The notes below the pieces were generated by a model. It saw nothing but the letters and a program-made list of their open reading frames with translations, did no database searches and had not been told where the DNA came from. 64,000 nt of DNA, taken from assembly GCF_988242995.1 (NCBI RefSeq), contig NZ_OZ547043.1; one strand, given 5' to 3'. The position numbers were made by a program, and so were the translations under genes. Shown piece after piece: positions 50,121 to 61,500 of this stretch. Every line of letters starts with the position of its first letter. Within the stretch, counting starts at the first letter, position 1.

Positions 50121-53100
50121 ATGCAAAGGAAAACTTTATTGTCGGCCTGTATTGCATTAGCTCTGAGTGGTCAGGGTTGGGCGGCAGATATCACAGAGGT
50201 AGAAACCACCACAGGTGAAAAGAAAAATACTAATGTGACTTGTCCGGCAGATCCAGGAAAACTCAGTCCGGAAGAGCTTAAACGCTTACCCTCTGAATGC
50301 ACCCCTTTAGTCGAACAAAACCTGATGCCATGGCTTGCCACAGGCGCTGCTGCGTTAATCACGACCTTAGCCGTAGTGGAACTAAACGACGATGATGATC
50401 ATCATCATCGCAACAATTCTCCACTCCCACCGACGCCCCCTGATGATGATTCAGACGACACTCCAGTGCCCCCAACTCCTGGCGGAGATGAGATAATACC
50501 GGACGTTCCGGATGATACGCCTACACCTCCCAAACCGATTTCGTTTAATAATGACGTTATTCTCGATAAAACAGAAAAAACGTTAACTATTCGCGATTCA
50601 GTTTTTACTTATACCGAGAATGCTGACGGGACTATTTCTCTGCAAGATAACAGTGGTCGTAAGGCAACGATTAATCTTTGGCAGATTGATGAAGCGAATA
50701 ATACTGTTGCCCTTGAAGGTGTGAGCGCAGATGGCACAACAAAGTGGCGATATAATCACAACGGTGAGCTTGTTATAACGGGTGATAATGCCACAGTAAA
50801 CAACAATGGCAAAACCACCGTTGACGGTAAAGACTCCACCGGCACGGAAATCAACGGTAATAACGGAAAAGTTATCCAGGACGGCGATCTGGATGTCAGC
50901 GGCGGCGGTCACGGCATTGATATCACCGGCGACAGCGCGACGGTGGATAACAAGGGCACCATGACCGTCACCGATCCGGAGTCCATCGGTATTCAGATCG
51001 ACGGCGACAAGGCGGTTGTTAACAACGAAGGCGACAGCACCATCAGCAATGGTGGCACCGGCACACAGATTAACGATGATGATGCCACGGCGAATAACAA
51101 CGGCAAAACCACCGTTGACGGCAAGGATTCCACCGGTACAGAAATCAACGGTAATAACGGGAAGGTTATCCAGGATGGCGATCTGGATGTCAGCGGTGGC
51201 GGTCACGGGATTGATATTACCGGCGACAGCGCAACGGTGGACAACAAGGGCACCATGACCGTCACCGATCCGGAGTCCATGGGGATCCAGATCGACGGCG
51301 ACAAGGCCATCGTCAATAACGAAGGCGAGAGCACCATCACCAACGGCGGCACCGGTACGCAGATTAACGGTGATGACGCCACGGCGAACAACAACGGCAA
51401 AACTACCGTTGACGGTAAAGATTCCACCGGTACAGAAATCAACGGTAATAACGGAAAAGTGATTCAGGGCGGCGATCTGGATGTCAGCGGCGGGGGCCAC
51501 GGCATTGATATCACCGGTGACAGCGCGACGGTGGATAACAAGGGCACCATGACCGTTACCGATCCGGAGTCCATCGGTATCCAGATCGACGGCGACAAGG
51601 CGGTTGTCAATAACGAAGGCGACAGTTCCATCAGCAACGGCGGCACCGGTACGCAGATTAACGGAGATGACGCCACGGCGAACAACAGCGGCAAAACCAC
51701 CGTTGACGGTAAAGACTCCACCGGCACGGAAATCAACGGTAATAACGGAAAAGTTATCCAGGACGGCGATCTGGATGTCAGCGGCGGCGGTCACGGCATT
51801 GATATCACCGGTGACAGCGCAACGGTGGACAACAAGGGTACCATGACTGTCACCGATCCGGAGTCCATCGGTATTCAGATCGACGGCGACAAGGCCATCG
51901 TCAATAACGAAGGCGACAGCACCATCAGCAACGGCGGCACCGGCACACAGATTAACGGTGATGACGCCACGGCAAACAACAACGGCAAAACCACCGTTGA
52001 CGGTAAAGATTCCACCGGTACGGAAATCAACGGTAATAACGGAAAAGTGATTCAGGACGGCGATCTGGATGTCAGCGGTGGCGGTCACGGGATTGATATT
52101 ACCGGTGACAGCGCGACGGTGGATAACAAGGGCACCATGACCGTCACCGATCCGGAGTCCATGGGGATCCAGATCGACGGCGACAAGGCCATCGTCAATA
52201 ACGAAGGCGAGAGCACCATCACCAACGGCGGCACCGGCACGCAGATTAACGGTGATGACGCCACGGCGAACAACAACGGCAAAACTACCGTTGACGGCAA
52301 GGATTCCACCGGCACGGAAATCAACGGCAATAACGGAAAAGTTATCCAGGACGGTGATCTGGATGTCAGCGGCGGCGGTCACGGCATTGATATTTCTGGC
52401 GATAATGCCGCCGTCGATAACAAAGGCAATATGACCGTCACGGACGCAGACTCGATCGGTGTACTGATCAATGGCGACAACGCGACACTTGCCAATACTG
52501 GTGATGTGGATGTCAGTAATTCAGCGACGGGATTTGCTATTACCAGCGACGAGGGGAAAATCTCCCTCGCGGGAAGTATGCAGGTCGGTGATTTTTCAAC
52601 AGGGCTGACATTAACTGGCGATAATAATAGCCTGACAATGGCAATGCAGGATCTTAATGTCGTTGGTCAGAAAGCTACAGGTATTAACGTCTCCGGTGAT
52701 GCCAACACAATTGATATAACTGGTAATATTCTGGTTGATAAAGATCAGAGCGCAGACAATGCGGCAGAGTATTTTTATGACGCTTCCGTGGGCGTAAATG
52801 TCAGTGGTCATAATAACAATGTGACACTGGATGGTAAATTAACGCTTGTTGCGGATGGTGAAACTACCACACGTGATGTCTCGAATTTTGATGGTAGCCA
52901 GGAAAATATTTCTGGTCTTATTGTTTCCGGTGATGGTAACAACATCAATCTGAATGGCGGGATTGCATTTGTTGGTGAAATAAATGCGCTGACCGATGGT
53001 TCAGCCATTGCTAACAAACGGACTTTCTTCGGTAATACGCCACTTATTGGTATTGATGGTGAATCGAAGGTATATCTGAATGGTGACTCAACGATCAGTG

Positions 53101-56100
53101 GTGATCTGCAACTAGGATATGCAAGCCTTATCCAGTTAAAAAATAAAGCAGCTATTGAGATTGGCAGTGAAGCTACTTTCAATATGCGGGATATTGAAAA
53201 TTATGATCATTACTATGCACAAACACCACAGATTATAAAGGCAGAAAGTAGCTCTGAGGTCATAAATAACGGTAATGTTGATATCTGGAATATCAGTTTT
53301 GCTGGTATCTTTGGCGAAAATACCACAGGTATCAATAACGGGAATATCACACTTTCTCTGTATGATTATGCCTCAACTAATACGCCAGCACCGGAACCAG
53401 ATAACACGGCCTTCTTGACCTCTAACGGCGGCAGCGCAGTAAACAAAGGGGTAATTACCTCAAAAGTAATGGAGCAACATAGCGTTGTTAATATGGCTGC
53501 ACTCACGGGGTCAACGGATCAGCGCGTGTTTAATAACAGCGTAGCAAGCATGATGGGGATGGAGGCGTATAATAAAGGCTCTGTTCTCAATGCCGAAGAT
53601 GCTGTCATTGATATGTATGGACGCGGTAGCATTGGCATGTTAGCCATCGATAACTCAACGGCGGATAATGCAGGCAATATTACGGTGGATACGTTATGGA
53701 TTGATGACAATGACACCACCAGTTTGCATACCGATCTTCCGGGGGCAACGGCAAAAGATTATGGCGTTGGTATGGCAACCGGGACAGACACCGGGGGTGG
53801 CGCTCGTAACAACGCTATTGCGACCAACCTGGAAGGTGGTGTAATTACTGTATATAACGCAGGTGCCGGTATGGCCGCCTACGGTAACAGTAATATGGTT
53901 ATTAACCAGGGAATCATTAACCTCGAGAAAAATGCAGATTACGATGCAAACCTGGGTAGTAATACGCTGGTAGGGATGGCAGTGTATAAAGGTGCTACGG
54001 CAATAAACGACCAAACTGGTGTAATCAATATTAATGTTGATACGGGCCAGGCGTTTTATAATGATGGTACAGGCATTATCCTCAACTATGGTGAGATTAA
54101 TCTCAACGGAGCGGAAATTGATAGCACCGACTCTCATTATGGTGCTCCTGCAGAGAATCTGGAACTGTTATCTGAATTGAGTGCCAGTGGAGAGAACATT
54201 ACAAAAACAGTTATCCGAGATGGCTTTGTTACCATTAAACCGCTGGCTAATTATGGTACAGAAATACTGAACGGCGATGTCGATGCCAACCTATGGTTAT
54301 ATAACGAGGATAAGGCCAGCCTGACAGTTAATGGTGATTTGAATATTGTCCAGGGGCTGGAAAACAGCGGGAGCATGGATGCCGACAAGCTTACTGCCAA
54401 TGCCAGTGTTTACAATCGCGCCTCGGGCAGTATGACAACCGAACTGTTAATGTTAAAAGGCGGGTCTGCCTTCTTCAATGAGGGAAGCTTTAGCGGAGTA
54501 ATTAGCGGTGATAGTTATAAACAAAACGTTGTAAATACGGGGGAGATGACAACTGTCACAGATGGTAGTGCCTTAATTAACGGCAGTTTCGTACTTTATA
54601 ATGAAGCCGGTTCAACGCTTACAAATAGCGGCAATGCTATTGCGGGAGGGGAAAATGCCATCGTTAATATCACACGCACCAGTGATTCTCTTTCACAGGT
54701 TAACCGCGGAAAAATTACCGCCACAAACGGTTACAGTGCGATTAAAACTGCCAGCACAGCCTCTAACAGCAACGGCAAATGGATTTGGAATACAGAAACC
54801 GGTGTAATTAATGGTATCAATCCAGATGCTCCACTGATTGATTTAGGTCGCGGGTATAATTTTGCTAACGCCGGAACAATTAATGTTCAGGGTGATGGTT
54901 CAGTTGCTATTAGCGGAGGCACCACCAGCTATACTGTTCAGTTAGTGAACAGCGGCACAATTAACGTGGGTACTGAACAGGGCAAAGCAGATGGAAGCAA
55001 CGGTGAAGGTCTGATTGGCATCAAAGGAAATGGTTCTGCAACAACGATTAATAATACTAAAGACGGTGTCATTAACGTTTATGCAGATAATTCATGGGCG
55101 TTTGGTGGTTCCACTAAAGCGATTGTGAATAATGGGATAATCAACCTGTTGTGTAATATTGGTTGCGAGATTTATGCGCCAAATACCACAGGGACGAGAA
55201 ACAGTCAGGATGGAACTGCGGATATAATCGTACCGGTCGCTTCTGCGACGCCTGGGCAAGGTAATGTTCCTGCGGCACCAGTCAATGCTGTAAGTCAGCA
55301 AAAACTTACCAATTACACTATTGGTACTAATAGCGACGGAAGTTCCGGCACCTTGAAAGCCAATAACCTTGTTATCAGTGACAACGTCAAGGTAAATACT
55401 GGCTTTAGTGCAGGAACTGCTGATACTACCGTGGTGATTGATGATGTTTTCAAAGGTGAAAATATCAGCGGCGCGGAGAATATCACTTCCTCTTCAGTTG
55501 TCTGGAACGCTAAAGGCAGTACCGATGCCAGCGGCAACGTTGACGTCACTATGAGCAAAAACGCTTATACCGATGTGGCGACCGATGCTTCGGTGAATGA
55601 CGTCGCGAAAGCACTGGATGCGGGTTACACCAACAACGAGCTGTATACCAGCCTGAACGTCGGCACGACTGCCGAACTGAACAGCGCCCTGAAACAGGTC
55701 AGCGGTAGCCAGGCGACCACGGTATTCCGCGAAGCGCGTGTGCTCAGCAACCGCTTTAGCATGCTGGCAGATGCCGCACCGAAAGTGGGTAACGGTCTGG
55801 CGTTCAACGTGGTGGCGAAAGGCGATCCGCGCGCGGAGCTGGGGAACAATACCGAGTACGACATGCTGGCACTGCGTAAAACCATTGACCTGAGTGAAAG
55901 TCAGACCATGAGTCTGGAGTACGGTATCGCTCGTCTCGATGGCGACGGTGCGCAGAAAGCTGGCGATAATGGTGTTACAGGCGGTTACAGCCAGTTCTTT
56001 GGCCTGAAACATCAGATGTCCTTCGACAATGGCATGAACTGGAACAACGCATTGCGTTATGACGTTCACAACCTTGACAGCAGCCGTTCGATTGCATTTA

Positions 56101-56612
56101 GCAACACGAACAAAACTGCTGATACCGACGTGAAACAGCAGTACCTGGAGTTCCGCAGCGAAGGAGCGAAGACTTTCGAACCGAGCGAAGGGCTGAAGGT
56201 CACACCATATGCGGGTGTGAAACTGCGTCACACACTGGAAGGTGGCTATCAGGAGCGCAATGCCGGAGACTTTAACCTGAATATGAACAGTGGTAGCGAA
56301 ACGGCGGTGGACAGCATCGTCGGGCTGAAACTGGACTATGCAGGTAAAGACGGCTGGAGCGCTAGCGCTACGCTGGAAGGCGGGCCGAACTTGAGCTACG
56401 CGAAGAGCCAGCGCACAGCAAGCCTGGCAGGTGCAGGCAGTCAGCACTTTAACATCGATGACGGTCAGAAGGGCGGCGGCATCAACAGCCTGGCAAGTGT
56501 CGGCGTGAAGTACAGCAGCAAAGAAAGTTCGCTGAATCTGGATGCGTACAACTGGAAAGAGGAAGGCATCAGCGACAAAGGCGTGATGCTGAACTTCAAG
56601 AAAACGTTCTAA
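50121..56612 (+). CDS. ydbA: Large autotransporter adhesin-like protein, uninterrupted
   Basis: 2163 aa: signal peptide, Pro/Asp/His-rich linker, about six and a half tandem 98-aa repeats, long beta-helix-like passenger, and a C-terminal beta-barrel translocator ending in F. Confidence 0.85.
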   Translation: MQRKTLLSACIALALSGQGWAADITEVETTTGEKKNTNVTCPADPGKLSPEELKRLPSECTPLVEQNLMPWLATGAAALITTLAVVELNDDDDHHHRNNSPLPPTPPDDDSDDTPVPPTPGGDEIIPDVPDDTPTPPKPISFNNDVILDKTEKTLTIRDSVFTYTENADGTISLQDNSGRKATINLWQIDEANNTVALEGVSADGTTKWRYNHNGELVITGDNATVNNNGKTTVDGKDSTGTEINGNNGKVIQDGDLDVSGGGHGIDITGDSATVDNKGTMTVTDPESIGIQIDGDKAVVNNEGDSTISNGGTGTQINDDDATANNNGKTTVDGKDSTGTEINGNNGKVIQDGDLDVSGGGHGIDITGDSATVDNKGTMTVTDPESMGIQIDGDKAIVNNEGESTITNGGTGTQINGDDATANNNGKTTVDGKDSTGTEINGNNGKVIQGGDLDVSGGGHGIDITGDSATVDNKGTMTVTDPESIGIQIDGDKAVVNNEGDSSISNGGTGTQINGDDATANNSGKTTVDGKDSTGTEINGNNGKVIQDGDLDVSGGGHGIDITGDSATVDNKGTMTVTDPESIGIQIDGDKAIVNNEGDSTISNGGTGTQINGDDATANNNGKTTVDGKDSTGTEINGNNGKVIQDGDLDVSGGGHGIDITGDSATVDNKGTMTVTDPESMGIQIDGDKAIVNNEGESTITNGGTGTQINGDDATANNNGKTTVDGKDSTGTEINGNNGKVIQDGDLDVSGGGHGIDISGDNAAVDNKGNMTVTDADSIGVLINGDNATLANTGDVDVSNSATGFAITSDEGKISLAGSMQVGDFSTGLTLTGDNNSLTMAMQDLNVVGQKATGINVSGDANTIDITGNILVDKDQSADNAAEYFYDASVGVNVSGHNNNVTLDGKLTLVADGETTTRDVSNFDGSQENISGLIVSGDGNNINLNGGIAFVGEINALTDGSAIANKRTFFGNTPLIGIDGESKVYLNGDSTISGDLQLGYASLIQLKNKAAIEIGSEATFNMRDIENYDHYYAQTPQIIKAESSSEVINNGNVDIWNISFAGIFGENTTGINNGNITLSLYDYASTNTPAPEPDNTAFLTSNGGSAVNKGVITSKVMEQHSVVNMAALTGSTDQRVFNNSVASMMGMEAYNKGSVLNAEDAVIDMYGRGSIGMLAIDNSTADNAGNITVDTLWIDDNDTTSLHTDLPGATAKDYGVGMATGTDTGGGARNNAIATNLEGGVITVYNAGAGMAAYGNSNMVINQGIINLEKNADYDANLGSNTLVGMAVYKGATAINDQTGVININVDTGQAFYNDGTGIILNYGEINLNGAEIDSTDSHYGAPAENLELLSELSASGENITKTVIRDGFVTIKPLANYGTEILNGDVDANLWLYNEDKASLTVNGDLNIVQGLENSGSMDADKLTANASVYNRASGSMTTELLMLKGGSAFFNEGSFSGVISGDSYKQNVVNTGEMTTVTDGSALINGSFVLYNEAGSTLTNSGNAIAGGENAIVNITRTSDSLSQVNRGKITATNGYSAIKTASTASNSNGKWIWNTETGVINGINPDAPLIDLGRGYNFANAGTINVQGDGSVAISGGTTSYTVQLVNSGTINVGTEQGKADGSNGEGLIGIKGNGSATTINNTKDGVINVYADNSWAFGGSTKAIVNNGIINLLCNIGCEIYAPNTTGTRNSQDGTADIIVPVASATPGQGNVPAAPVNAVSQQKLTNYTIGTNSDGSSGTLKANNLVISDNVKVNTGFSAGTADTTVVIDDVFKGENISGAENITSSSVVWNAKGSTDASGNVDVTMSKNAYTDVATDASVNDVAKALDAGYTNNELYTSLNVGTTAELNSALKQVSGSQATTVFREARVLSNRFSMLADAAPKVGNGLAFNVVAKGDPRAELGNNTEYDMLALRKTIDLSESQTMSLEYGIARLDGDGAQKAGDNGVTGGYSQFFGLKHQMSFDNGMNWNNALRYDVHNLDSSRSIAFSNTNKTADTDVKQQYLEFRSEGAKTFEPSEGLKVTPYAGVKLRHTLEGGYQERNAGDFNLNMNSGSETAVDSIVGLKLDYAGKDGWSASATLEGGPNLSYAKSQRTASLAGAGSQHFNIDDGQKGGGINSLASVGVKYSSKESSLNLDAYNWKEEGISDKGVMLNFKKTF
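50798..52560 (+). repeat. In-frame tandem repeats inside ydbA: 294-bp unit (98 aa), ~6.5 copies
   Basis: Recurring unit NNNGKTTVDGKDSTGTEINGNNGKVIQDGDLDVSGGGHGIDITGDSATVDNKGTMTVTDPESIGIQIDGDKAVVNNEGDSTISNGGTGTQINDDDATA with a few substitutions per copy. Confidence 0.85.
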
Positions 56613-56819: not shown

Positions 56820-57680
56820 ATGAGCAGCAACACATTTACTCTCGGTACAAAATCCGTTAACCGTCTTGGTTATGGCGCGATGCAACTGGCAGGCCCTGGG
56901 GTTTTTGGCCCCCCAAGAGATCGCCACGTTGCTATAACCGTGCTGCGCGAGGCGCTGGCATTGGGCGTCAATCATATTGATACCAGCGACTTTTATGGTC
57001 CGCACGTCACCAATCAGATTATCCGCGAAGCGCTACATCCTTACTCTGACGACCTGACAATTGTCACTAAAATTGGTGCACGACGTGGTGAGGATGCTTC
57101 CTGGTTGCCCGCATTTTCTCCGGCAGAGCTGCAAAAAGCGGTACACGATAATCTACGTAATCTCGGCCTGGACGTACTGGATGTGGTTAACCTGCGCGTC
57201 ATGATGGGGGATGGTCATGGCCCGGCGGAAGGATCGATTGAAGCCAGCCTGACCGTGCTGGCAGAGATGCAACAACAAGGCCTGGTAAAACATATTGGCC
57301 TGAGCAACGTCACACCGACGCAGGTCGCAGAGGCGCGTAAGATTACCGAAATCGTCTGTGTGCAGAACGAATACAACATTGCTCATCGTGCTGATGACGC
57401 AATGATTGATGATTTGGCCCGCGTTGGCATTGCTTACGTGCCGTTCTTCCCGCTTGGGGGCTTTACGCCGCTGCAATCCTCCACACTTTCGGATGTAGCA
57501 GCGAGCCTGGGCGCAACACCAATGCAGGTGGCGCTGGCGTGGCTGTTACAACGTTCACCGAATATTTTGCTGATCCCAGGGACATCTTCTGTTGCGCATT
57601 TACGGGAGAATATGGCTGCTGAAAAATTGCATCTTTCTGAGGAAGTGTTGTCTACGTTGGATGGTATTTCGCGAGAATAA
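56820..57680 (+). CDS. ydbC: Aldo-keto reductase
   Basis: 286 aa; family motifs (GYGAMQLAG, IDTSDFYG). Confidence 0.85.
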   Translation: MSSNTFTLGTKSVNRLGYGAMQLAGPGVFGPPRDRHVAITVLREALALGVNHIDTSDFYGPHVTNQIIREALHPYSDDLTIVTKIGARRGEDASWLPAFSPAELQKAVHDNLRNLGLDVLDVVNLRVMMGDGHGPAEGSIEASLTVLAEMQQQGLVKHIGLSNVTPTQVAEARKITEIVCVQNEYNIAHRADDAMIDDLARVGIAYVPFFPLGGFTPLQSSTLSDVAASLGATPMQVALAWLLQRSPNILLIPGTSSVAHLRENMAAEKLHLSEEVLSTLDGISRE

Positions 57681-57749
57681 CGAGTCAGGCGCTCGCAGAT
57701 TGTGCTTAAGGAAGAGCACAAAGCGATAGAAAACAGGTAAGCGGATTGA

Positions 57750-57779
57750 GATGTGGACTGAATATCTACAGTCCACATC
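57750..57779. terminator. Strong hairpin between convergent ydbC and azoR (candidate bidirectional terminator)
   Basis: gatgtggact-(10 nt)-agtccacatc, a perfect 10-bp stem. Confidence 0.45.
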
Positions 57780-57793
57780 AAGATCGTGTCCGG

Positions 57794-58408
<615 letters not shown>

Positions 58409-58599
58409 TTATGGATGTTTGAATGGGCGATGCCCTGTTGCTTGTTGACACTTTATTCACAATCCTGCCACAGAGATAGCGCAATAAATCGAAGCCTATG
58501 TTCGAATTTATTGAACAACGCATAGAAAGCCGCGATGTGGTACTCTATATCTATCATTTAAAAGAAAATTAATCAGGCAGCCTACTGCCCACTAACGTT

Positions 58600-61500
58600 A
58601 TGACAGAACAACAAAAATTGACCTTTACGGCCTTGCAGCAGCGGCTGGATTCGCTGATGCTGCGCGACAGACAGCGTTTTTTACGCCGTCTTCACGGTGT
58701 GAAGAAGGTTAAAAATCCTGATGCACAACAGGCCATTTTCCAGGAGATGGCGAAAGAGATTGACCAGGCGGCAGGGAAAGTCCTGCTGCGTGAAGCGGCA
58801 CGTCCGGAAATTACTTATCCGGACAATTTGCCGGTTAGTCAGAAAAAGCAGGACATTCTCGAAGCAATTCGTGATCACCAGGTAGTGATCGTCGCCGGGG
58901 AAACGGGTTCCGGTAAAACGACTCAGCTACCGAAAATCTGTATGGAGCTGGGCCGCGGGATTAAAGGGCTGATCGGCCATACCCAGCCGCGTCGTCTGGC
59001 GGCACGAACGGTGGCCAACCGTATTGCGGAAGAGCTGAAAACGGAGCCGGGCGGTTGCATCGGTTACAAAGTGCGTTTCAGCGATCACGTAAGTGATAAC
59101 ACGATGGTCAAGCTGATGACCGACGGTATCCTGCTGGCGGAGATCCAGCAAGACCGCCTGCTGATGCAGTACGACACTATCATTATTGACGAAGCGCACG
59201 AACGCAGCCTGAATATCGATTTTCTGCTCGGCTATTTGAAAGAGTTGCTGCCGCGGCGTCCTGACCTAAAAATCATTATCACTTCCGCGACTATCGACCC
59301 GGAACGCTTTTCGCGCCACTTTAATAATGCGCCGATTATCGAAGTCTCCGGCCGGACCTATCCGGTGGAAGTGCGCTATCGCCCGATTGTTGAAGAAGCC
59401 GATGATACCGAGCGCGATCAGTTGCAGGCGATTTTTGACGCCGTAGACGAACTGAGCCAGGAAAGTCCCGGCGACATTCTGATCTTTATGAGCGGTGAGC
59501 GGGAAATTCGCGATACCGCCGATGCGCTGAACAAGCTGAACTTACGCCATACCGAAATCTTGCCGCTTTATGCGCGGCTTTCGAACAGCGAACAGAACCG
59601 CGTGTTCCAGTCGCACAGCGGACGGCGTATTGTGCTGGCGACCAACGTCGCGGAAACCTCGCTGACCGTACCGGGGATTAAATACGTTATCGACCCCGGT
59701 ACAGCACGTATCAGCCGCTACAGCTATCGCACCAAAGTGCAGCGTTTGCCGATTGAGCCGATTTCGCAGGCGTCTGCCAATCAGCGTAAAGGCCGCTGTG
59801 GTCGTGTGTCTGAAGGGATCTGTATTCGTCTCTATTCCGAAGACGATTTCCTCTCGCGCCCGGAGTTTACCGATCCGGAGATTCTGCGTACCAACCTGGC
59901 CTCGGTTATTTTGCAGATGACCGCGCTGGGGCTGGGTGATATCGCGGCGTTCCCGTTTGTCGAAGCACCGGATAAACGCAATATCCAGGATGGCGTGCGT
60001 CTGCTCGAAGAACTGGGCGCGATCACCACTGATGAACAGGCCAGCGCTTATAAACTGACGCCGCTCGGTCGCCAGCTCTCGCAGTTGCCTGTCGACCCAC
60101 GTCTGGCGCGTATGGTGCTGGAAGCGCAAAAACATGGCTGCGTGCGTGAGGCGATGATTATCACGTCCGCGCTCTCCATTCAGGATCCGCGCGAGCGTCC
60201 GATGGATAAACAGCAGGCATCGGACGAAAAACATCGCCGCTTCCACGACAAAGAATCCGACTTCCTCGCGTTTGTAAATCTGTGGAATTATCTCGGCGAG
60301 CAGCAAAAGGCGCTTTCTTCTAACGCCTTCCGTCGCCTGTGTCGTACCGATTATCTCAACTATCTGCGCGTGCGCGAATGGCAGGATATCTACACCCAGT
60401 TGCGTCAGGTAGTGAAAGAACTTGGCATTCCGGTTAACAGCGAACCGGCGGAGTATCGCGAAATTCACATCGCCTTACTGACCGGTTTGCTTTCCCATAT
60501 CGGCATGAAAGATGCCGATAAACAAGAATATACCGGCGCACGTAACGCGCGTTTCTCCATTTTCCCCGGTTCCGGCTTATTTAAAAAGCCGCCGAAATGG
60601 GTAATGGTGGCGGAACTGGTAGAAACCAGCCGCCTGTGGGGGCGCATTGCGGCACGCATCGACCCTGAATGGGTAGAACCCGTTGCTCAGCATTTGATTA
60701 AACGCACCTACAGCGAACCGCACTGGGAACGGGCGCAGGGCGCGGTGATGGCAACGGAAAAAGTCACTGTTTATGGTTTGCCGATTGTTGCTGCGCGTAA
60801 GGTCAACTACAGCCAGATCGATCCGACGTTATGTCGTGAACTCTTTATTCGCCACGCTCTGGTGGAAGGTGACTGGCAGACACGTCACGCATTCTTCCGT
60901 GAAAACCTGAAACTGCGGGCCGAAGTGGAAGAGCTGGAACACAAATCACGTCGCCGCGATATTCTGGTTGATGACGAAACGCTGTTTGAGTTCTACGACC
61001 AGCGCATCAGCCACGATGTAATCTCCGCTCGTCACTTCGATAGCTGGTGGAAAAAAGTCAGCCGCGAAACGCCTGATTTGCTCAACTTTGAAAAGAGCAT
61101 GTTGATCAAAGAAGGGGCGGAAAAAATCAGCAAGCTGGATTACCCGAACTTCTGGCATCAGGGCAATCTCAAGCTGCGTTTGAGCTATCAGTTTGAGCCC
61201 GGCGCGGACGCGGACGGTGTGACCGTGCATATTCCGCTGCCGCTGCTTAATCAGGTAGAAGATAGCGGGTTTGAATGGCAAATCCCCGGCCTGCGTCGTG
61301 AACTGATCATCGCACTGATTAAATCGTTGCCGAAACCGGTACGCCGTAATTTTGTGCCTGCACCAAACTACGCCGAAGCGTTTTTAGGCCGCGTCACACC
61401 GCTGGAGTTACCGTTGCTCGACAGCCTTGAGCGCGAGTTACGGCGGATGACCGGCGTTACCGTTGACCGCGAAGACTGGCACTGGGATCAGGTGCCTGAT

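Follow-up and report, generated by a model that had tools for sequence, protein, structure and literature searches.

The pdxI-azoR Spacer of Escherichia coli Clonal Complex 38 Is Probably the Scar of a Single ~7.06-kb Deletion

In Escherichia coli K-12 MG1655 (NC_000913.3), the gene order is pdxI (b1406)-ydbD-ynbA-ynbB-ynbC-ynbD-azoR (b1412)-hrpA, and the 7,173 bp from the pdxI stop to the azoR stop contain five genes. According to the RefSeq annotation, YdbD is a DUF2773 bactofilin, YnbA is a CDP-alcohol phosphatidyltransferase, YnbC is a hydrolase/methyltransferase, and YnbD is a PAP2/dual-specificity phosphatase. Earlier work reported that YnbB is a paralogue of CdsA and that MPIase glycolipid levels rise when it is overproduced; the ynbB knockout grew normally with an unchanged MPIase level, indicating an auxiliary role (PMC6362211). 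It was also reported that BglJ-RcsB activates the ynbA promoter and that ynbA is an H-NS-type silenced target (PMC3950696). Our literature search on the transcription of ynbD or azoR and on loss of the cluster returned only these functional papers on ynbB and ynbA together with strain-typing papers, and none of them concerned the deletion described here.

Here, we analysed a 64,000-nucleotide stretch of DNA (the window), in which pdxI (formerly ydbC) and azoR are convergent and lie 113 bp apart according to the list of open reading frames (Table 1). A first-pass annotation had noted this short distance and the absence of the ydbD-ynbABCD segment, and it had stated that K-12 carries ydbD and ynbA-ynbD between the two genes. 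All of these points were borne out by the ORF coordinates and by NC_000913.3, in which ydbC is not directly adjacent to azoR. The same annotation had called the locus strain-variable, and our genome searches agreed: of the 5,426 complete genomes, 3,755 had at least 80% of the K-12 segment, many had partial forms, and in 785 pdxI and azoR were adjacent. The window resembled the K-12 locus in its flanking genes, their orientation, the ynbD stop, and the ynbD-azoR spacer, including an identical 30-nt hairpin. Unlike K-12, the window lacked 7.06 kb, namely the pdxI terminator, ydbD, ynbA, ynbB, ynbC, and 94% of ynbD. Taken with the evidence below, we consider it very likely that the ancestor of clonal complex 38 (CC38; ST38/ST963, phylogroup D) lost ~7.06 kb in a single deletion, of which the 113-bp spacer is the scar.

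Table 1. Positions of the features at the pdxI-azoR locus of the window
Feature	Position	Strand	Description	Basis
pdxI (formerly ydbC)	56820-57680	+	pyridoxine 4-dehydrogenase, 286 aa; TAA at 57678-57680	ORF list and RefSeq annotation of identical DNA
Deletion junction	57681-57683		3-nt CGA microhomology adjoining the pdxI stop; the hairpin starts 69 nt downstream	
ynbD 3' remnant	57681-57740	+	20 codons including TAA at 57738-57740	alignments, translation
Inverted repeat in the ynbD remnant	57700-57721		TTGTGCTT-AAGGAA-GAGCACAA; 8-bp stem; from ynbD coding sequence	
Ancestral ynbD-azoR intergenic spacer	57741-57793		53 nt, intact, identical in CE10 and NMBU-W10C18	
Hairpin	57750-57779		GATGTGGACTG-AATATCTA-CAGTCCACATC; arms 57750-57760 and 57769-57779; perfect 11-bp stem, 8-nt loop	
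azoR	57794-58399	-	FMN-dependent NADH-azoreductase, 201 aa	ORF list and RefSeq annotation

The window was aligned with K-12, CE10 (O7:K1), NMBU-W10C18, UID2309220031, O157:H7, APEC O2:K1:H7, and O100:H21. These alignments, among them the one with K-12 that the first-pass annotation had suggested as a check, revealed that the spacer consisted of the 3' end of ynbD followed by the ynbD-azoR spacer. The remnant corresponded to the last 72 nt of the ynbD frame minus 12 nt (gap between 57727 and 57728), and it carried 4 substitutions relative to the CE10-type allele. It translated to RVRRSQIVLKEEHKAIENR followed by the stop, and the counterparts were RARRSRIVLKEEHKAMLKLWENR with a stop in CE10 and a 23-residue peptide in K-12; the C-terminal peptide of YnbD was kept in the translation of the window remnant. 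Over the whole 113 bp, there were 4 mismatches to the CE10/NMBU allele and 10 to K-12, indicating that the phylogroup-F CE10 type was closest. All four mismatches to the CE10/NMBU allele were located inside the remnant. The remnant showed 4 mismatches in 60 nt in addition to the 12-nt loss, compared with 3 in the 659 nt of spacer and azoR relative to NMBU-W10C18 (Fisher p = 0.0013). This excess divergence of the remnant fits decay after loss of function. Three of the substitutions and the 12-nt loss were found in no sampled full-length ynbD allele; these changes could also predate the deletion, in an unsampled allele, or stem from complex repair rather than from later decay.

The breakpoint was located by comparing the two flanks in the full-length alleles. 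In K-12, CE10, NMBU-W10C18, and UID2309220031, the left flank was TAA-CGA-ATATAC and the right flank, inside ynbD, was ATT-CGA-GCCAGA, and the window read TAA-CGA-GTCAGG. Over a longer stretch, pdxI was followed by TAA-CGA-ATATACAAAAGGGAAAGATGCATTTCCCTTTT in each full-length allele and by TAA-CGA-GTCAGGCGC in the window, and the ynbD sequence was ATT-CGA-GCCAGACGC. The BLAST alignments to ynbD started exactly at 57681. In CE10 coordinates, the deletion comprised 7,057 bp (L003 1944 to 9000) and removed the pdxI terminator, all of ydbD, ynbA, ynbB, and ynbC, and 1,221 nt from the start of ynbD. The lost pdxI terminator was called by the terminator scan in K-12 (L001 10092-10117) as GGGAAAGATGCATTTCCC followed by a T-run, and it was missing from the window. 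Inspection of the four full-length alleles found no direct repeats longer than CGA at the deletion endpoints. Likewise, no integrase or att-type repeat was found at the junction, where the endpoints shared CGA only, and the annotations of K-12, CE10, and NMBU-W10C18 contained only pdxI, ydbD, ynbA-D, and azoR, with no mobile-element gene at the boundary.

The junction thus resembles those of microhomology-associated (illegitimate) bacterial deletions, with one clean junction, a 3-nt sequence shared by the endpoints, and no mobile elements, and we found no feature in the window that would distinguish it from them. The sequence cannot prove the mechanism. A 3-nt microhomology is expected at ~5% of random junctions, and it is therefore weak evidence for any particular mechanism. 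We propose that the ancestor carried pdxI, its terminator, ydbD, ynbA, ynbB, ynbC, ynbD, the hairpin, and azoR, in this order. Illegitimate recombination at CGA would have joined the base after the pdxI stop to ynbD codon 408, by either replication slippage or microhomology-mediated joining. Decay of the leftover 72 nt of ynbD would have followed, with a loss of 12 nt and 3-4 transitions, and the ynbD-azoR spacer would have stayed intact.

The first-pass annotation had offered the opposite direction of change, in which the short form is an unoccupied insertion site, the K-12-like strains gained ydbD-ynbABCD, and the hairpin is both the junction and a shared terminator. Such a gain would suit the base composition in part, as the cluster is somewhat AT-richer than the flanking genes (46.7% versus 52-53% GC), with ydbD and ynbB at ~43.5% but ynbC and ynbD at ~51%. 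It would also suit the variation of the locus among strains and the reported silencing of ynbA together with its activation by BglJ-RcsB (PMC3950696). However, an empty site cannot hold part of the insert, and the spacer contains the 60-nt coding 3' end of ynbD with its stop. The presence of these C-terminal codons indicates that the short form is derived. Moreover, the pdxI terminator is gone from the window, and the boundaries show no integrase and no direct repeats longer than 3 nt; the IS elements observed at the locus lie inside the clusters of other strains. The hairpin did not prove to be the junction either: it lies 69 nt from the break, and the region 57741-57793 that contains it is identical in cluster-bearing genomes, so the hairpin was inherited with the cluster-bearing haplotype and was neither made by the deletion nor its junction. 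In the ancestral arrangement, its neighbour on the side away from azoR was ynbD rather than pdxI. The ideas of an insertion hotspot and of a recombination junction at the hairpin are both corrected by these results.

The outgroups were also compared with respect to the ancestral state. In E. albertii, azoR was adjoined by a homologous hairpin and a sequence resembling the 3' end of ynbD. In several Citrobacter species, Klebsiella spallanzanii, Phytobacter ursingii, and Superficieibacter, ynbD-C-B-A were found downstream of azoR at a distance of 0.4-1.5 kb, and in Phytobacter massiliensis ynbC-B-A abutted azoR directly without ynbD. The presence of ynb genes beside azoR in E. albertii and many Enterobacteriaceae argues against an unoccupied site and indicates that the cluster-bearing state is old. 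Within E. coli, too, the K-12 segment was far more widespread than the window junction (3,755 versus 145 of the 5,426 genomes), which agrees with this order of events. On the other side, azoR was next to pdxI without ynb genes in Kluyvera, Enterobacter sp. kpr-6, and C. amalonaticus, as the insertion reading would predict. Within Escherichia, the outgroup scan returned E. coli and E. albertii; E. fergusonii, E. marmotae, and E. ruysiae were not among its matches, and the contig of E. albertii ended 266 nt beyond azoR. The data on the ancestral state in this genus are thus limited. With both sides weighed, we regard the gain of the segment at an empty site as very improbable, and a deletion from a cluster-bearing ancestor is the preferred explanation.

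The distribution of this deletion was determined with a 170-nt junction probe. A full match was found in only 145 of the 5,426 complete E. coli genomes, nearly all at an identity of at least 99%; the two places usually matched per genome in the junction search corresponded to the pdxI part and the ynbD-azoR part of the query. The pdxI allele of the window occurred at an identity of at least 99% in 141 genomes. The next best allele (97.8%, UID2309220031) lay beside a complete cluster, in which ynbC was frameshifted. The perfect or near-perfect junction matches included CE2050, 28Eco12, and 266917_2. CE2050 is the ST963 reference genome, and ST963 belongs to CC38 in phylogroup D (PMC9429958); 28Eco12 and 266917_2 are ST38 strains (PMC6963479). 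From the sequence identity and these few typed strains, we infer that the 145 carriers represent one lineage, CC38. The unique 113-bp junction would thus serve as a precise sequence marker for this clonal complex.

The two flanks of the junction showed different affinities. The azoR gene was 99.5% identical to that of the cluster-bearing NMBU-W10C18, and pdxI was only ~95% identical to the alleles of NMBU-W10C18, CE10, and K-12. This difference, the high polymorphism of the region, and the mosaicism evident at the locus in ST131 would agree with an unsampled donor lineage having passed the deletion to CC38 by homologous recombination, rather than with its birth in the CC38 ancestor. However, no genome outside the ~141-145 carriers had the junction or a pdxI allele at 99% identity or more, and the scar would in any case still be a deletion from a ynb-bearing haplotype. 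We consider such an import quite unlikely and favour an origin of the deletion within the CC38 ancestor. Among the complete genomes, no perfect match to the last 25 kb of the window was found; the best matches reached 99.0% over the whole length or 99.7% over 94-97% of it.

The adjacency of pdxI and azoR was further examined with a 901-nt search, which found the two genes contiguous in 785 genomes. Separate junction searches assigned 145 genomes to the window type and 643 to an ST131 type, exemplified by O25b:H4-ST131 MB1341. The ST131-type locus resembles the window in that pdxI and azoR are convergent without ynb genes between them, and both types belong to extraintestinal pathogenic lineages and jointly make up the 785 adjacent genomes. 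These similarities would be expected if the two forms were one ancient ynb-less haplotype spread by recombination. The direct sequence comparison led us to reject this idea. Unlike the window, the ST131 type has an unrelated spacer of 39 bp (L002 3388-3426), without a ynbD remnant and without the 11-bp hairpin, and its pdxI has a divergent 3' end (288 aa). In addition, the window junction was matched in only 145 genomes and the ST131 junction in 643. We therefore assign a common origin of the two forms only a negligible probability and treat the CC38 deletion as an event of its own.

On the azoR strand, the ST131-type spacer reads CCTCCCAC-GAAA-GTGGGAGG-TTTTTT, which the scan called terminator-like. 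This canonical azoR intrinsic terminator is of the CCTCCC...GGGAGG type. The same hairpin is found downstream of azoR in Citrobacter, Salmonella enterica subsp. arizonae, Klebsiella, Phytobacter, and the GTDB E. coli representative, and judging from this distribution it looks like a family-wide azoR terminator. The ST131 and APEC O1 sequences were near-identical over the first ~650 nt of pdxI and over azoR, and they differed at 47 positions in the last ~200 nt of pdxI as well as in the spacer. This pattern suggests that the ST131 form arose by allelic replacement with a breakpoint inside pdxI, separately from the window deletion. The same gene adjacency would thus have been reached twice by unrelated routes, through a deletion in CC38 and through carriage of an old alternative haplotype in ST131.

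Apart from the hairpin at 57750-57779, no strong inverted repeat was found between pdxI and azoR. The first-pass annotation had described it as a perfect 10-bp stem at the centre of the spacer. The hairpin was real, but its perfect stem measured 11 bp, and its midpoint (~57764.5) did not coincide with that of the gap (57737); it started 69 nt past the pdxI stop and ended 14 nt from azoR, in the azoR-proximal third. The hairpin is no product of chance, as perfect 11-bp stems are expected at ~1.7e-4 in 113 nt. The predicted fold of the + strand spacer had an energy of -41.8 kcal/mol (z = -5.6), which was matched by 0 of 200 shuffles, and no shuffle was as good as the fold of the - strand (z = -4.4). 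For the hairpin alone, which has 6 G-C pairs in its stem, the predicted energies were -23.4 kcal/mol (+ strand) and -20.6 kcal/mol (- strand).

The hairpin resembles intrinsic and bidirectional terminators in being a stable stem-loop that separates two convergent genes and lies 14 nt beyond the azoR stop. Unlike them, it has no U-tract on either strand and no pair of A-tract and U-tract. Its 3' flank was AAGATCGTG on the + strand and TCAATCCGC on the - strand (AAGATCG and TCAATCC). The terminator scan did not call the hairpin in the window or in K-12, and the same scan called the deleted pdxI terminator and the ST131-type azoR terminator. A canonical or bidirectional intrinsic terminator was therefore rejected, and the shared convergent terminator proposed by the first-pass annotation is probably not what the hairpin represents. 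A dispersed palindrome of the REP/BIME type was also rejected: only one copy was found in the 64-kb window, even with 3 mismatches allowed, and the genome searches found the hairpin-containing piece at the azoR locus only. No match to Rfam 15 with E <= 1 was found in 57300-58700 on either strand.

The stem was invariant across the E. coli alleles examined, with a loop of 8 or 5 nt. In E. albertii, one stem position was changed, which would give a G-U pair on the azoR-sense strand and an A-C mismatch on the other, with predicted energies of -22.9 and -14.9 kcal/mol, respectively. The hairpin thus appears to be under selection for structure. Its most likely place of action is the azoR transcript, either as a stem-loop that stabilises the 3' end or as a weak terminator; this suggestion draws on the structure, its conservation, and the one informative substitution in E. 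albertii, which together form thin evidence.

Loss of the pdxI terminator might also affect transcription. Without a canonical terminator, pdxI transcripts in CC38 would be predicted to end in or beyond the ynbD scrap, with its 8-bp stem at 57700-57721, and the hairpin. Read-through from pdxI, antisense to azoR, is possible in CC38 as judged from the arrangement of these elements; if it occurs, the terminator loss could alter the expression of azoR or pdxI.

The repeat at 57700-57721 was the first predicted stem-loop of the spacer, and its stem was also present in the ynbD of K-12 and CE10. At the 3' end of ynbD, the repeat TTGTGCT...AGCACAA was found in both E. coli allele types, with the loop TAAGGAA in one and GACAGAC in the other (K-12: L001 17149-17170). 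The corresponding arms in E. albertii (L006) were TTATATT...AACATAA, in which two changes look compensatory and one mismatch is present. This pattern suggests that the inverted repeat may be a conserved RNA or DNA structure. It was also observed that the ynbD remnant lies in the pdxI frame, right behind its TAA (57678-57740), and that read-through of the pdxI stop would add a YnbD-derived tail of 19 residues (RVRRSQIVLKEEHKAIENR). The shared frame is probably a coincidence, with a chance of 1 in 3.

The cluster was found in various states of erosion in other lineages. APEC O1 had no ydbD gene, nor did a large class of genomes that cover ~67% of the K-12 segment (L001 10083-17255), and a class covering 78% of the segment had an internal ynbA-ynbC deletion. 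IS1203, ISEc52, and IS10-type insertions occurred sporadically inside the cluster of some strains. The ynbB gene had an internal stop in NMBU-W10C18 (L004) and YDC107 (L085), and ynbC had a frameshift in UID2309220031 (L090). The CC38 loss fits a dispensable, decaying cluster that erodes independently in many lineages; it is an ordinary lineage-specific deletion of a familiar kind. CC38 is naturally without YdbD and YnbA-D, which agrees with the dispensability of ynbB in the laboratory (PMC6362211).

The repeated loss of ynbABCD in successful extraintestinal lineages (CC38 and ST131) might alternatively reflect selection against a product of the cluster. This idea derives from the independent routes in CC38 and ST131, together with the ydbD deletions, the ynbB internal stop, and the ynbC frameshift elsewhere. 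YnbB can contribute to MPIase glycolipid synthesis (PMC6362211). The other genes resemble enzymes that modify a lipid derived from a CDP-alcohol. Neutral decay is the alternative, and we consider selection unlikely.

The genes next to the junction also varied. The pdxI gene is unusually polymorphic for a chromosomal gene of E. coli, and the window allele differed by ~5% from those of K-12, CE10, and NMBU-W10C18, mostly at third codon positions. For pdxI with its upstream 200 nt, 3,718 of the 5,212 genomes showed just 90-95% identity, and 214 genomes had no pdxI match at all; azoR and hrpA, beside this polymorphic gene, differed by 0.5-3%. Further upstream, ydbA (50121-56612) was an intact ORF for an autotransporter of 2,163 aa with long internal tandem repeats, and its K-12 counterpart is a pseudogene interrupted by IS2D and IS30C. 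The closest genomes matched the last 25 kb of the window in 2-3 pieces or covered 94-97% of it. NMBU-W10C18 (L004 13980-15390) and YDC107 (L085 13980-15390) carried ~1.4 kb between hrpA and ydcF, with three hypothetical genes and a gene fragment, which was missing in K-12, CE10, and APEC O1. In UID2309220031 (L090 8536-9467), most of the paa operon and the whole of ydbA were gone, with a paaX fragment and paaY directly upstream of pdxI; this gap is a further large deletion in the neighbourhood of pdxI.
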